Positions 11,925 to 51,061 of a stretch of DNA of 64,000 bases are shown here, in pieces. The translations under genes and the position numbers were made by a program. Below the pieces are notes generated by a model that worked only from the letters and a program-made list of their open reading frames with translations, did no database searches and had not been told where the DNA came from. The number at the start of each line of letters is the position of its first letter. The first letter of the stretch is position 1. The DNA is from Marinicella sp. (lineage in GTDB: Bacteria > Pseudomonadota > Gammaproteobacteria > Xanthomonadales > Marinicellaceae), in the NCBI GenBank assembly GCA_965230295.1, contig OZ246001.1, positions 1,568,001 to 1,632,000 on the forward strand. The letters run 5' to 3'.

Positions 11925-11952
11925 GCTCACTTCGACTCCGCTCAGTGAGCGG
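11925..11952. repeat. REP-like palindrome, family A (core CTTCGACTCCGCTCAG)
   Basis: GCTCACTTCGACTCCGCTCAGTGAGCGG; same core recurs at 12178-12257, 45012-45139, 49785-49865 and 50249-50375. Confidence 0.85.
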
Positions 11953-12000: not shown

Positions 12001-12119
12001 CGTCATTGCGGCGAAGGCCGCAATCCAGCGTCTTTATTTCACAATGCAATGTATGAATTTATTGCAGCTTTAAACGTATTTCTGAAAGACACTGGATGCC
12101 GGCCTTCGCCGGCATGACA
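12001..12119. repeat. Inverted doublet of CGTC-type palindromic repeats (family B)
   Basis: CGTCATTGCGGCGAAGGCCGCAATCCAG ... CTGGATGCCGGCCTTCGCCGGCATGAC in inverted orientation; relatives at 39991-40105 and 47701-47736. Confidence 0.8.
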
Positions 12120-12177: not shown

Positions 12178-12257
12178 GGCTTCGACTAAGCCTGTCATGA
12201 GTTTGTCGAATGGCTCAGCCAGCGGTAATCCGTTCACTGAGCGGAGTCGAAGTGAAC
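12178..12257. repeat. Family A REP doublet (interrupted forward unit plus inverted unit)
   Basis: GGCTTCGACTAAG[23-nt insert]CTCAGCCAGCGG...CCGTTCACTGAGCGGAGTCGAAGTGAAC. Confidence 0.85.
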
Positions 12258-39990: not shown

Positions 39991-40105
39991 CGTCATTCTG
40001 TGACTTGACCACAGAATCCAGGTAGTATAATTTTGACGCTTATTAAAAGTTTGAATCACTGAAGTACTGTCCGCCTGGATCCTGCGGTCAAGCCGCAGGA
40101 TGACG
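39991..40105. repeat. Inverted doublet of CGTC-type palindromic repeats (family B)
   Basis: CGTCATTCTGTGACTTGACCACAGAATCCAGG ... CCTGGATCCTGCGGTCAAGCCGCAGGATGACG. Confidence 0.85.
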
Positions 40106-44951: not shown

Positions 44952-45011
44952 TTGTTCACCTCAAATACAGATTGTTCAAGTATACGTCAGCCCTCTACAA
45001 TCACCAAGCCA

Positions 45012-45139
45012 TTCACTGAGCGGAGTCGACGTGTAAACCTATTTATTCCATCAAACATCAGATTGAGGCGGCTTCGACTCCGCTCAGCCAGCGGAAGACC
45101 ACATATCATCAAACCCGTTCACTGAGCGGAGTCGAAGTG
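45012..45139. repeat. Cluster of three family A REP units
   Basis: TTCACTGAGCGGAGTCGACGTG (45012), GGCTTCGACTCCGCTCAGCCAGCGG (45070), CCGTTCACTGAGCGGAGTCGAAGTG (45115). Confidence 0.88.
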
Positions 45140-45292
45140 GACTTAGTCTGGAAACAACCCAAACCACTCATTCAACAATTAAACAAGCTCATCAAAAGTG
45201 TATTCAAAGAACTGTTTGTTTTGTGTGCAACCTATTTTTTTGCATACCAAGATGATTGATTTCTGAAGCCGACTCAGCCAGAATGACGCGCT

Positions 45293-47179
45293 ATGATTCA
45301 ATTGACCAACCTTTCTTTGCGACGTGGCCATAAAGTCTTGTTTGAAGAGGCCACATTAAGCATCCACCCAGGACAAAAAGTCGGCTTGACCGGCGCCAAT
45401 GGCACCGGAAAATCAAGCCTGTTTGCCTTGTTCATGGGTCAGTTGCAAGCCGATCTGGGTGACTGCAGCGTACCGAAACACTGGCAGATTGCTCACGTCA
45501 AACAGGAAACCCCTGCCTTGGATCAATCAGCTCTGGATTATGTGCTGGATGGTGATGTGGTGTATAGATCCATTGAACAACAAATTGAGCAAGCCACGGC
45601 CGATGAAGCCCATGAGCAATTGGGTGAGTTGTATGCAGAGATGGAACGCATAGGTGGTTATGCCGCCCATGCCAAAGCCGGTCGCTTATTACATGGCCTG
45701 GGTTTTGCCGCAGGTGAAGAATTGCATTCGGTCAAATCCTTTTCAGGTGGCTGGCGCATGCGATTGAATCTCGCCCAAGCATTGATGTGTCCCTCAGATT
45801 TGTTGTTACTCGATGAGCCCACCAACCACTTGGATCTCGAAGCTGTGGTGTGGTTACAAGATTGGCTGAAACGCTACGAAGGGACCTTGGTGTTGATTTC
45901 ACATGACCGTGACTTTCTGGATGGGGTGATAAAGTTCATCTTGCACATTGAGCATGAAAAACTCAAGCAGTACACCGGTAATTATTCAGCCTTTGAAAAA
46001 ATCCGCACCGAGCAACTGGCCTTGCAACAAGCGATGTTTGAAAAACAGCAGAAACAAATTGCCCACATGCAATCTTATGTGGACCGTTTTCGCTACAAAG
46101 CCAGCAAAGCCAAACAGGCCCAGTCTCGACTGAAGGCTTTGGAACGCATGGACACCATTGCTGCCGCTCAAGTGGAAAACCCCTTTCATTTTGAATTCTA
46201 CCCATGCCAAAATCTCAAACACCAGATCGTTGAATTGGAGCATGCCGACATCGGCTATGGCGATCACCTGGTGTTTCAAGATTTAACCTTTTCTGTGACT
46301 GCAGGTGCTCGCATTGGTCTGTTAGGCCGCAATGGTGCAGGCAAATCAACCTTGATCAAAGCCATGTCTGGAGAAAAGGAACTGCAAAGTGGTGAGCTTA
46401 AAACAGCCAAAGACCTCCACATTGGTTATTTTGCACAACACCAATTAGAACAGTTAGACCCCCAATCCACAGCGATAGAACATGTGATGCAGCTGGATGC
46501 CAAAATCAACAGCACCGCAGCCACTGAACAAGCGGTGAAAAACTTCCTCGGTGGATTTGGCTTCCAGGGAGAAAAAGCCGACACCCCGATCAAGCCCTTT
46601 TCTGGCGGAGAAAAAGCACGCTTGGCTTTGGCCCTGATTGTCTATCAGCGCCCTGACTTGTTGTTGCTGGATGAGCCGACCAACCACTTGGACCTGAACA
46701 TGCGTGACGCCATCAGTTTCGCCTTGCAAAGCTATGAAGGCGCCGTGATCCTGGTCTCGCATGATAAACACATGCTCAATTCAGTGATCGATGAAATGGT
46801 TTACATCGATCGCGGGCAGATCCACCCCTTTGATGGCGATTTGGACGGTTACCAAAGTTTCATCAAAGCACAGATCAAAGCAGCTGAAGCTGAAGAACAA
46901 GCACAATCAGGGCAAGCTGATGTGGTGTCAATCAGCAAAAAGCAAAACCACAAAGCCAACAAAGCGGCCAAGAATCGTTTGAAAAAACTCGAAAGGATGG
47001 TCGATGATTACACGCAAAAACTGGTCGATGTCACAGCCAAATTGGGATCTGAAGACATCTACGAACCGGAGAATGTCCATGAACTCACCCTCTGTTTGAA
47101 CCAGTCCAAAGAGTTAAAAATGAAACTGGATGAAGCCGAAAACGAATGGATGGTACTCAGTGAGGAGTTGGAAGGGTGA
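45293..47179 (+). CDS. ABC-F family ATPase (YheS-like)
   Basis: Two ABC domains (GANGTGKS/FSGGWRMR and GRNGAGKS/FSGGEKAR), LLDEPTNHLD twice, no TM helices. Confidence 0.92.
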   Translation: MIQLTNLSLRRGHKVLFEEATLSIHPGQKVGLTGANGTGKSSLFALFMGQLQADLGDCSVPKHWQIAHVKQETPALDQSALDYVLDGDVVYRSIEQQIEQATADEAHEQLGELYAEMERIGGYAAHAKAGRLLHGLGFAAGEELHSVKSFSGGWRMRLNLAQALMCPSDLLLLDEPTNHLDLEAVVWLQDWLKRYEGTLVLISHDRDFLDGVIKFILHIEHEKLKQYTGNYSAFEKIRTEQLALQQAMFEKQQKQIAHMQSYVDRFRYKASKAKQAQSRLKALERMDTIAAAQVENPFHFEFYPCQNLKHQIVELEHADIGYGDHLVFQDLTFSVTAGARIGLLGRNGAGKSTLIKAMSGEKELQSGELKTAKDLHIGYFAQHQLEQLDPQSTAIEHVMQLDAKINSTAATEQAVKNFLGGFGFQGEKADTPIKPFSGGEKARLALALIVYQRPDLLLLDEPTNHLDLNMRDAISFALQSYEGAVILVSHDKHMLNSVIDEMVYIDRGQIHPFDGDLDGYQSFIKAQIKAAEAEEQAQSGQADVVSISKKQNHKANKAAKNRLKKLERMVDDYTQKLVDVTAKLGSEDIYEPENVHELTLCLNQSKELKMKLDEAENEWMVLSEELEG

Positions 47180-47700: not shown

Positions 47701-47736
47701 AAAAGACACTGGATACCGGCTTTCGCCGGTATGACG
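47701..47736. repeat. Single CGTC-type repeat (family B)
   Basis: AAAGACACTGGATACCGGCTTTCGCCGGTATGACG, nearly identical to 12084-12118. Confidence 0.8.
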
Positions 47737-48721: not shown

Positions 48722-49618
48722 TCAATCGAAATCAACCTCAGGAATCATGCTCATTGGAAACCCAGTGCTGATCAACAAGTCATTTCCCTGGTTACTGATA
48801 GACAGTCCAGACATCAAAGCAGCCAATACTGGTTTGTCATCATTCATGTTTGATAATGCATTCATGGCAATCAAACCATTGATCACTTGCTCCAACTGTT
48901 TTGCTGTGGCTTCGTCTGCTGTAGACAGTGCGGCGTCAATACTCAGGTTTTGCTCAGCTTCATACAAACTGGCTGAGAACTGTGTGACTTTTTGGAACAC
49001 CGCTGAATTGAATGGCCTGCTGTTGCTCTTCAAGTCTGCACCCATATGGGCCATGGCAGATTCAATGTTGACCAACAATGACACCATGCCTGAATTGTTC
49101 AGATCATATGTGCTGTAACTGTCAGCAGCCCAATTTTTGACTTCTGCTTCATCGAAACTCACCACAATGGTTTCATCGCTCAACTTGGTGCTAAAAAAAG
49201 ATTTGGTTTTGTTGTCACCACTGACTCTGAATTCTTCGACCACTTGCCCATTGTGTTTATAGGTGTTAAACAAACCCACATTGATGTCTTTGTCTGATTC
49301 GACCAAATACATCAAATTATTGATGAAGTCATTCAAGGTGAATTGACTGAAATCACCATGGAGAACCAATGATAAATCATCTTCTGCTTCACTGTGTCCA
49401 TAGGCCGTGATTTGCTTCACTTCATGAGGCAGGTGTTCGTTGATGGAAAAATCTGCGTGTGCCTCTTTGTGTTGAGGAATCAAAGGGACTATCTTGGTAC
49501 GTACTTGCTCAACATCCACAGAAAAATACCAATTGGCCTCATCATATGGGCTGGCCTGGGTGTTGATTGACAAGGCCAATGTGGCCATTAAAAATAGGTT
49601 GGTTAATGTTTTTTTCAT
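48722..49618 (-). CDS. Secreted hypothetical protein, first gene of the ECF operon
   Basis: Signal peptide MKKTLTNLFLMATLALSINTQA; GGAG RBS. Confidence 0.75.
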   Translation of the reverse strand: MKKTLTNLFLMATLALSINTQASPYDEANWYFSVDVEQVRTKIVPLIPQHKEAHADFSINEHLPHEVKQITAYGHSEAEDDLSLVLHGDFSQFTLNDFINNLMYLVESDKDINVGLFNTYKHNGQVVEEFRVSGDNKTKSFFSTKLSDETIVVSFDEAEVKNWAADSYSTYDLNNSGMVSLLVNIESAMAHMGADLKSNSRPFNSAVFQKVTQFSASLYEAEQNLSIDAALSTADEATAKQLEQVINGLIAMNALSNMNDDKPVLAALMSGLSISNQGNDLLISTGFPMSMIPEVDFD

Positions 49619-49784
49619 ATCATGCTCCGATTCAATACTATTAGATATGAAAACTTATAGGCTTGGTAACTGCCAAAGGTTACAAATATGTGAAATTAAT
49701 TTCGTTCGCTTAGACGCAAGAAAGCTGCTGAGCCAGTAGGTGAGCATAGCGAATCACCACAAAGCGAATTTCAGTGAGCAGTTA

Positions 49785-49865
49785 GGCTTCGACTCCGTTT
49801 GTTATGAGTTGGCTGAATGTCTCAGCCTGCAAGACACCCGTTCACTGAGCGGAGTCGAAGTGAAC
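49785..49865. repeat. Family A REP doublet left of the GIY-YIG gene
   Basis: GGCTTCGACTCCG[23-nt insert]CTCAGCC...CCGTTCACTGAGCGGAGTCGAAGTGAAC. Confidence 0.88.
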
Positions 49866-49931
49866 TTGAGTGAAACACTAATTTCAGTATCTCTGATATG
49901 TTAAAGTAAATGAGTCTATAAGGAATTGATT

Positions 49932-50246
49932 ATGAATGGATACGTTTACATACTCGAATGCAGTGATGGCAGTTTTTATACTGGCAGCACAAAAGATATT
50001 GAGCAACGTATCTGGCAGCATCAGAATGGACAAGGTGCAAAATATACCCAAAAAAGGCTGCCTGTAAAACTTGTATATATTGAACATTGTTTTAGAATCG
50101 ATGATGCTTACCACAGGGAAGGACAAATAAAAGGATGGAGCAAGAAGAAGAAACTGGCTTTGATAAACAATAATTTAGAAGCTCTAAAAGCCTATTCCAT
50201 TTGTTTGAATAACAGCCATCATATGAACCAAGATCCCATTGATTAG
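49932..50246 (+). CDS. Stand-alone GIY-YIG nuclease (YhbQ/UPF0213-like)
   Basis: YVYILECSDGSFYTGST, R..QHQNGQGAKYT, AYHREGQIKGWSKKKKLALI; AGGA RBS. Confidence 0.92.
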   Translation: MNGYVYILECSDGSFYTGSTKDIEQRIWQHQNGQGAKYTQKRLPVKLVYIEHCFRIDDAYHREGQIKGWSKKKKLALINNNLEALKAYSICLNNSHHMNQDPID

Positions 50247-50248
50247 CA

Positions 50249-50375
50249 GGCTTCGACTCCGCTCAGCCAGCGGTAATCCCTAATCTAAACTTTTGGCTTC
50301 GGCTCCGTTTGTCATGAGCATGTCGAATGGCTCAGCCAGCGCGATTTCCGTTCACTGAGCGGAGTCGAAGTGAAC
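50249..50375. repeat. Three family A REP units right of the GIY-YIG gene
   Basis: Intact forward unit at 50249, interrupted forward unit at 50295, inverted unit at 50348. Confidence 0.88.
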
Positions 50376-50389
50376 ATGAGGTTTGTTCA

Positions 50390-51061
50390 CTAGCCCATAC
50401 CAAAAATCAAATAAATGATTTCCACCCCTTTTTGGGTGTGGTGTAGCAACAAGAATGACAACAAATACAGTAACGAAGACAACAAGCCCAAAGACCACAG
50501 GTATTTTGTATTGACTTGAAACATCTGATGCAATCCATAAACTGCGATGGCGGTGGCATGTAACCAGATCAGAACCAACAAGTAGATATGCCAATCCATC
50601 ATCGCCTCAGCATGAGCCAGTTGTAAAAACAAGTTGTGGTATTTTTCCCCGGTAAAACCGGCATGGACCTCAAACACCATATTCCACAACCACAATGGAA
50701 TCCAGTAAACCACAATAAACCACCCAACCATCAAACCCACTTGATGGTGGTTGCGCAAACCCAACCAGGCAACACCAGCAACCAAAATCGAAACCAAGGC
50801 CCCGTGCACCAACAGCACTGCAAAAATTTCTCCTGGTTTTTCCTGCTCCTGAACAAAGGCAAAGCTTGAAAATAACAACGACAATACCGTGATGATGATC
50901 ACCATCAGTGCAATCGACTTTTTCACATTCAGCATGGCATGCTCAATGGCGTTGTTGTGATTCTTAACACCTGCCATCACCCAACTTGGGCGCAGATAAA
51001 AACAAAACATGGCCATAAAGGCATGGTACAAGGCAGCGCATTCTTTGATGATGTATTGCAT
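50390..51061 (-). CDS. Multi-pass membrane protein of unknown function
   Basis: About five hydrophobic helices; no family recognised. Confidence 0.6.
   Translation of the reverse strand: MQYIIKECAALYHAFMAMFCFYLRPSWVMAGVKNHNNAIEHAMLNVKKSIALMVIIITVLSLLFSSFAFVQEQEKPGEIFAVLLVHGALVSILVAGVAWLGLRNHHQVGLMVGWFIVVYWIPLWLWNMVFEVHAGFTGEKYHNLFLQLAHAEAMMDWHIYLLVLIWLHATAIAVYGLHQMFQVNTKYLWSLGLLSSLLYLLSFLLLHHTQKGVEIIYLIFGMG

Follow-up and report, generated by a model that had tools for sequence, protein, structure and literature searches.

A small GIY-YIG nuclease gene flanked by dispersed hairpin repeats in Marinicella, and its relation to the Ssn/SRM systems

In the 64,000-nt stretch of the Marinicella sp. 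genome analysed here (hereafter, the window), a gene for a 104-aa GIY-YIG nuclease lies among copies of a dispersed palindromic repeat. The locus raises the question of whether the gene and the repeats belong together, whether they move, and whether such a pairing is new. A sequence-only reading of the window had suggested that the nuclease may recognise and propagate the repeats, or that the gene travels as a repeat-bounded cassette, and had presented the locus as a candidate for an undescribed system.

The nuclease gene and the repeat units around it

The gene occupies positions 49932-50246 on the forward strand, and is assigned below to an Ssn-like group of proteins (group A). Its product matches the Pfam GIY-YIG family over residues 3-74 (E = 4e-20, 72.3 bits vs. 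a cut-off of 22.6), with no second Pfam domain in the 104 residues, and falls inside the ~90-110 aa size of the single-domain Ssn family. The group A alignment shows no variation at residues Y6, Y16, R26, H30 and E63. No NCBIfam profile scored above its cut-off (TIGR01453 reached 17.7 bits, under its cut-off of 56), and the protein atlas matches were to generic ‘GIY-YIG nuclease family’ clusters only. The G+C count given in the sequence-only reading, 67 of the first 180 nt, proved exact on recounting; the G+C content of the whole gene is 36.5%, compared to 42-44% in both adjoining genes and 44% in the genome (4.008 Mb, single contig). This genome carries four small GIY-YIG genes, and a fifth match, within a 615-aa frame, is presumably UvrC. 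Hairpin repeats with other stems and the same TGAGCG-N-AGTCGAA core flank two of the other small genes, and the fourth has no flanking hairpin repeats.

The repeats comprise two kinds of unit. The F unit reads CCGTTCAC-TGAGCGGAGTCGAA-GTGAAC and the R unit reads GGC-TGAGCGGAGTCGAA-GCC, usually followed by CAGCGG on the other strand; an R unit and an F unit, inverted relative to each other, make up a module. We identified 11 units in the window (6 F and 5 R), all located between ORFs, of which 5 surround the GIY-YIG gene. Upstream of the gene, degenerate repeat remnants read from the sequence (49720-49780, e.g., GGTGAGCATAGCGAATCACC) mark the left edge of the block and are followed by an R unit on the reverse strand (49785-49827), interrupted by 23 nt at 49798-49820 (a small inverted T2a-like unit), and by an F unit on the forward strand (49838-49865), 66 nt upstream of the ATG, in which the stem GTTCAC/GTGAAC encloses the loop TGAGCGGAGTCGAA. 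Downstream, an intact R unit on the reverse strand (50249-50273) begins 3 nt past the stop codon, followed by a second R unit on the reverse strand (50295-50337), interrupted by 23 nt at 50308-50330, and by an F unit on the forward strand (50348-50375) that is identical over 28 nt to that at 49838-49865. The two modules are direct copies of 89 nt each (49782-49870 and 50292-50380), 82% identical, and both end in the same 28-mer, CCGTTCACTGAGCGGAGTCGAAGTGAAC. The unit count, the intergenic placement, the 3-nt distance from the stop codon and the identical module ends all agree with the earlier reading.

Away from the gene, the window contains a solo F unit on the reverse strand with the compensated stem GCTCAC/GTGAGC (11925-11952, by motif and fold), a gene-less composite module built like both gene-flanking modules (12178-12257, consisting of an R unit interrupted by 23 nt at 12178-12220 and an F unit at 12230-12257), and a gene-less cluster directly 5' of an ABC-F ATPase gene (45009-45142), which consists of a degenerate F unit (45009-45036), an intact R unit (45070-45094) and an F unit (45115-45142). 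With up to 3 mismatches, the 16-mer core has 8 matches in the window vs. 0.23 expected (0 of 100 shuffles reached 8), and 79 matches in 47 clusters in the genome. Interruptions of 23-25 nt were found in 3 of the 5 R units of the window (the inserts at 49798-49820, 50308-50330 and 12193-12213) and in 13 R units genome-wide, always between TGAG and CGGAG. Each insert is itself a small unit, of the related T2a kind, and runs opposite to the R unit that contains it. Because the 13 inserts are mutually homologous and all lie at one position, site-specific nesting and one old composite that was copied later are equally possible. An Rfam scan of 49000-51000 yielded one sub-threshold snoRNA match only.

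As single-stranded DNA, the R+F pair at 45068-45142 folds into a long hairpin (-21.2 kcal/mol, z = -5.9), and the module at 50246-50380 has a z-score of about -4.1 to -4.3. Single units fold weakly (-4.5 kcal/mol, z = -1.3), and an alternative small hairpin, CCGYT...AGCGG, the 3' arm of which is invariant, overlaps the unit. We examined covariation in 172 units of loop type T1 from 53 loci, picked with at most 1 mismatch to the core. The mean stem length was 4.3 bp, compared to 1.6 bp with shuffled partners; stem pairs 1-3, represented by several Watson-Crick combinations, were formed in 156-163 of the 172 units. The 14-nt core TGAGCGNAGYCGAA was invariant save for positions 7 and 10, an invariance that is in part due to the selection of units at no more than 1 mismatch. 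The invariant core and the pairing flanks of several pair types show that the group A hairpin consists of a covarying stem of free sequence and a fixed 14-nt loop.

Repeat flanking is specific to two GIY-YIG clades

The earlier reading had proposed measuring repeat enrichment around homologues across genomes. We compared 87 small GIY-YIG loci from 41 related genomes, with E. coli yhbQ as a reference, and divided them into genes like the window gene (group A, 6 loci), genes with the pattern GFT..KY...NPxWxDL (group B, 48 loci), a YhbQ-like gene present once per genome (group C, 21 loci) and other YhbQ-like genes (group D, 12 loci). In a motif-free test, we searched for repeats common to the 350 nt on the 5' side and the 350 nt on the 3' side of each gene (blastn-short, E <= 0.01), leaving out loci with short flanks (1 in group A, 4 in group B and 2 in group C). 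A repeat common to both flanks was found at 5/5 loci in group A and 40/44 in group B, compared to 1/19 in group C and 1/12 in group D. Since the genomes are related, the loci counted here are non-independent samples. In group A, a T1 or T2 loop motif occurs on both sides of the gene at 6/6 loci, and motifs were found around 0/21 of the YhbQ-like group C genes.

A maximum-likelihood tree of 82 proteins, built without the 6 that contain stops, separates groups A and B from groups C and D with E. coli YhbQ (support 98/92); group A is basal to group B, and group C behaves as a single-copy, vertically inherited gene (support 99/100). The window protein thus lies apart from the clade that joins E. 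coli YhbQ with the YhbQ-like gene of the same Marinicella genome. The best solved relative of the window protein is the UPF0213 protein BH0048 (structure 1zg2, E = 3e-17), an entry that a canonical group B protein matches with E = 0.005 only; in pairwise scores, the window protein has a median of 49.7 bits with group B vs. 57 bits with the YhbQ-like group D.

Searching one genome per species with the group A alignment, we found 80 group A loci with 51-80% identity in Bacteroidota, several Pseudomonadota, Spirochaetota, Thermodesulfobacteriota, Planctomycetota, Actinomycetota, Cyanobacteriota and others, and among named records a Marinicella MAG came nearest. The T1/T2 loop motif is present within 350 nt of the gene in 71 of these 80 loci. 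Among 83 loci, we assigned loop type T1 to 49, T2a to 13 and T2b to 12, with none in 9. On the protein tree, loci of one loop type group together: 14 changes were counted vs. 28.1 in shuffles (0 of 200 shuffles were as low; 8 rows with stops or short reads were left out), and in Flavobacteriaceae separate protein clades pair with separate loops. The nearest 5' unit shares the strand of the gene at 62 of 72 loci (median distance 34.5 nt), and the nearest 3' unit is oriented against the gene at 31 of 45 loci (median distance 22 nt). The functional coupling of nuclease and repeats suspected from the window is supported by these results: repeat flanking is specific to two GIY-YIG clades, and loop type tracks protein clade.

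One of these clades has been described. Ssn proteins are small single-domain GIY-YIG proteins (CDD cd10448) whose genes are flanked by dispersed hairpin repeats, termed NTS in Neisseria and SRM generally; at least one SRM lies near 71% of the homologues, and 42% are bracketed by SRMs (Chenal et al. 2025, Nat Commun 16:2388, PMC11893778). Membership of the family is set by assignment to cd10448 or by a blastp match to N. meningitidis SsnA with E <= 1e-10 at 75% cover. In that work, four purified homologues bind their own hairpin and cut beside it, on ssDNA only and on one strand. Group B is this published family. The claim of an undescribed system is consequently not supported: small GIY-YIG nucleases with dispersed hairpins of their own have been known since 2025, and the gene-repeat association, the ssDNA cleavage by four homologues and the comparison with RAYT systems are all contained in PMC11893778. 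Judged from the tree and the flanks, the window protein appears to represent a sister clade of Ssn, group A, spread across many phyla.

The published SRM consensus, HGTCWYN(0-2)YYVSBRHN(0-5)WNVSBRGN(0-2)RNCYNB (PMC11893778), has 64 matches in the window genome vs. 6-11 in three simulated genomes, with none within 600 bp of any small GIY-YIG gene of this genome. Three of these matches were counted in the window; canonical NTS/SRM-like hairpins that fit the pattern, such as TGTCATGCCGGCGAAGGCCGGCATCCAG, lie at 12005-12032 and, on the reverse strand, at 12092-12119, 40075-40105 and 47709-47736, none of them beside a GIY-YIG gene. In flanks, the pattern was found at 17/48 group B loci (one of which, L010, has a near-canonical NTS), and at 0/6 group A loci of the related genomes and 1/80 of the wider scan. 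Each of the two group B paralogues of the window genome (G000, C1:1943542-1944763 and 3081658-3082876) is flanked by several hairpin families in BIME-like mosaics (GTCATCC-TGAGCGCAGTCGAA-GGATC, GTCATTCCGACCGAG..., GTCATTGCGAGG... and GTCATTCTTTGGCTTGACC...).

Filled, unit-only and empty sites

The inserted block of repeats, gene and repeats measures ~670 bp (49700-50395, limits approximate), and the same intergenic site is empty in four relatives. In G000, 774 bp separate the 298-aa gene from the 223-aa gene, compared to a spacer of 96-233 bp in the relatives that keep this gene pair (G003, G006, G015 and G023); the cassette is missing in 4/4, with neither the gene nor units in that spacer. 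The membrane protein of these relatives is 59-77% identical to that of G000, and because the four differ in their distance from G000, parsimony favours a single insertion in the line of G000 over repeated loss elsewhere. At a further site, a group A gene lies directly 5' of the ABC-F ATPase gene in G010 (intact) and G021 (frameshifted). The G000 orthologue of this ATPase gene (45293-47179) is 89% identical, and the gene-less cluster at 45009-45142, 4.8 kb upstream of the cassette, sits at the site that is filled in G010 and G021. Of 24 genomes of the genus, 6 have units at the ABC-F site and 2 have the group A gene there, and the site lacks both in the other 18. Both the travelling cassette and the gene-less modules as empty sites, as envisaged in the sequence-only reading, are supported by these comparisons.

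A T1-type group A gene is present in G000 (30 F and 16 R units), G021 (49 F, 12 R), G006 (42 F, 27 R) and G010 (17 F, 15 R), with 32-69 F and R units in these four genomes. No such gene was found in G015 (2 F, 0 R), in G019 (2 F, 2 R) or in 16 other genomes of the genus, the latter with no F or R units. In G012 (19 F and 10 R, 29 units) and G017 (17 F and 16 R, 33 units), the group A query found no group A gene either, so that the repeats outlast the gene there, or the gene was not assembled. The genes are often broken, L005 by an in-frame TAG and L006 by a frameshift.

In G006 (C35:3412-3710, C26:14-189 and C6:19291-19525) and G017 (C6:16420-16768), as many as ten units follow one another in tandem, at periods of ~29-43 nt, indicating that units have been amplified head to tail as well. 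In group B, (nearly) identical proteins are shared across species (L052 of G011 with L053 of G014, and L070 of G011 with L085 of G016), and genomes carry up to 6-7 copies from separate subclades, which suggests recent transfer or mobility. At L016 (1495-1998), a group B ORF extends through its 3' repeats to 168 aa with a repeat-encoded tail; odd ‘fused’ GIY-YIG annotations are likely to arise from read-through of this type.

In view of the clade-specific association, the covarying stems and the occurrence of both filled and empty sites, we consider it probable that the locus consists of an Ssn-kind GIY-YIG endonuclease of group A and its cognate hairpin units, and that the gene with its flanking units is a cassette that has moved. 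The cognate element would be the repeat unit, an ssDNA hairpin in which a 5-6-bp stem of free sequence closes the 14-nt loop; in the genus, units also occur as inverted R+F doublets, which fold into long REPIN-like hairpins. By analogy with the tested Ssn enzymes, the group A protein is expected to bind the hairpin in ssDNA, on one strand only, and to nick nearby; recognition is probably of the loop and not of the stem. Its recognition rules may differ from those of the meningococcal enzyme: in Nm SsnA, the identity of the loop is unneeded and the loop can be removed (PMC11893778), such that these rules are not simply transferable to group A. The cassette would have been inserted at 49.7-50.4 kb, with gene-less units staying behind at the site that is occupied in relatives. 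The nick may have a role in the copying of units or of the cassette, and propagation of the repeats by the nuclease has the standing of a hypothesis.

Other explanations of the same observations differ in what they assign to the nuclease. The gene might merely have landed in a hot spot among ordinary REPs spread by a RAYT, or among terminators, a coincidence for which the occurrence of units in intergenic mosaics with other repeat families could speak. We regard this as very improbable, as it is contradicted by the flank test, in which the control GIY-YIG clades lack common flank repeats (1/19 and 1/12), by the same loop motif beside homologues across phyla (71/80), and by the only Y1 transposase of the genome. 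The latter is a RAYT-like protein of 197 aa with an HVHLL motif (G000:C1:1669231-1669824, 37 kb past the window end; the sole Y1_Tnp match, 40.5 bits vs. a cut-off of 23), which has no F or R units within 1.5 kb and is flanked by palindromes of its own, GTTGACTTCAGTCAAC and GTCGACTGAAGTCGAC (32 and 25 copies, respectively, with up to 2 mismatches). A classical REP-RAYT pair thus coexists with the GIY-YIG pairs and uses other repeats, and the search for a RAYT bearing the F and R units, which the earlier reading named as a possible refutation, left the coupling standing. Furthermore, a promoter and terminator scan gave no excess over chance and no terminator-like sites in 49600-50450. Some copies of the REP of the Y1 transposase lie in the same intergenic mosaics as F and R units.

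More is to be said for a strict analogue of RAYT, in which the nuclease copies units and cassette to new sites and the repeats depend on it for their spread, although we lean against such a GIY-YIG-driven mobile system. Gene and repeats co-occur within the genus, the cassette was inserted where relatives hold no units, the composite module with the same nested 23-nt insert is found at three places, and G006 and G017 contain tandem unit arrays. Conversely, GIY-YIG enzymes hydrolyse DNA, and no HUH-style covalent strand-transfer intermediate is known for them; G012 and G017 keep units with no gene detected; and the relatives have diverged too far in their intergenic DNA for a target-site duplication or a junction to be read. 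Propagation of repeats by the nuclease is also raised as a hypothesis in the Discussion of PMC11893778. The gene might instead be selfish in the manner of homing, such that a nick or cut at a gene-less unit is repaired by copying the gene from a filled site, with the dispersed units as homology arms, and the units themselves spread by other means. The layout of module, gene and module with direct repeats fits this, as do an ABC-F site that is filled in some genomes and gene-less in others, genes that are patchy, AT-rich and often broken (L005 and L006), and a protein tree at odds with taxonomy. We nevertheless find it unlikely: a pre-existing landing pad is not seen at the G000 cassette site, which has no units in the four relatives, the window protein has no DNA-binding domain of the known homing enzymes, and the tested Ssn proteins leave dsDNA uncut (PMC11893778).

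A service to the host, namely ssDNA restriction or the control of recombination as proposed for Neisseria SsnA, would make mobility a relic, with repeats that mark DNA for cutting when it is single-stranded (transforming DNA, or replication and repair intermediates). An effect on transformation in N. meningitidis (PMC11893778) and the intact, single-copy G000 gene with 46 well-conserved F and R units are consistent with this possibility, which we doubt nonetheless, given that even within a single genus the distribution of the gene is patchy and many copies are pseudogenes. A bolder version of the mobile reading, and a speculative one, holds that group A genes, together with T-loop hairpins, make up a family of mobile elements that is autonomous and extends across phyla, the nuclease being its sole encoded function. 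A nick at the ssDNA loop would seed the copying of units, doublets and cassettes, and one unit type would insert at a fixed loop position of another, of which the 13 interrupted R units would be traces. If true, this would amount to a transposition-like route without HUH, DDE or recombinase chemistry, and would assign a function to UPF0213-like proteins.

Comparison with known systems

The preferred reading, a group A endonuclease with cognate hairpins in a moved cassette, shares features with several known systems. As in REP/REPIN-RAYT systems, the gene is bracketed by dispersed palindromes of its own and is single-copy with tens of repeats; the inverted R+F doublets fold into a long hairpin as REPINs do, and the mosaic repeat clusters resemble BIMEs. 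Unlike in these systems, the flanked enzyme has a GIY-YIG fold rather than HUH. With GIY-YIG homing endonucleases of the I-TevI kind, free-standing or intron-encoded, it shares the catalytic domain, the patchy, AT-rich and often broken genes, and the filled and empty sites, but the window protein has no linker or C-terminal DNA-binding module, and its gene has no intron or phage context. UPF0213 and YhbQ proteins are similar in size and fold, and E. coli YhbQ is annotated in RefSeq as ‘DNA damage response nuclease YhbQ’. However, the YhbQ-like orthologue of the window genome is another gene (G000:C1:840616-840939), which is single-copy, has no repeats in its flanks and appears to be vertically inherited in the genus, whereas the genomic place of the group A gene varies among relatives. 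Literature searches on GIY-YIG with REP, RAYT or MITE returned nothing relevant, those on the repeat motif strings returned unrelated primer matches only, and those on YhbQ with nuclease returned passing mentions only.

The closest match is Ssn/SRM as described in PMC11893778. In both cases, a small single-domain GIY-YIG gene has hairpin repeats on both sides, the repeats are dispersed intergenically, a genome holds several paralogue-repeat pairs, and the layout resembles that of an insertion sequence; the NTS-ssnA-NTS arrangement is itself likened there to an insertion sequence and to the IS200/IS605-RAYT-REP systems. The differences are that the window protein falls in the sister clade, with a UPF0213 protein as its best solved relative, that group A repeats miss the published consensus, that the group A loop is conserved and the stem variable whereas the loop is dispensable in Nm SsnA, and that the units of the Marinicella genus form inverted doublets and composite modules. 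Taken together, and as far as the parts of PMC11893778 used here extend, our analysis adds a second widespread clade that escapes the published pattern and whose hairpin is reversed in build, the 14-nt loop being conserved and the stem free, as well as comparative evidence, from filled, unit-only and empty sites, for a movement of the cassette that the paper raises as a hypothesis only. The conserved loop could serve directly as a substrate in tests for a new ssDNA cleavage specificity, and comparison of filled with empty sites offers a way to approach the spread of such repeats.
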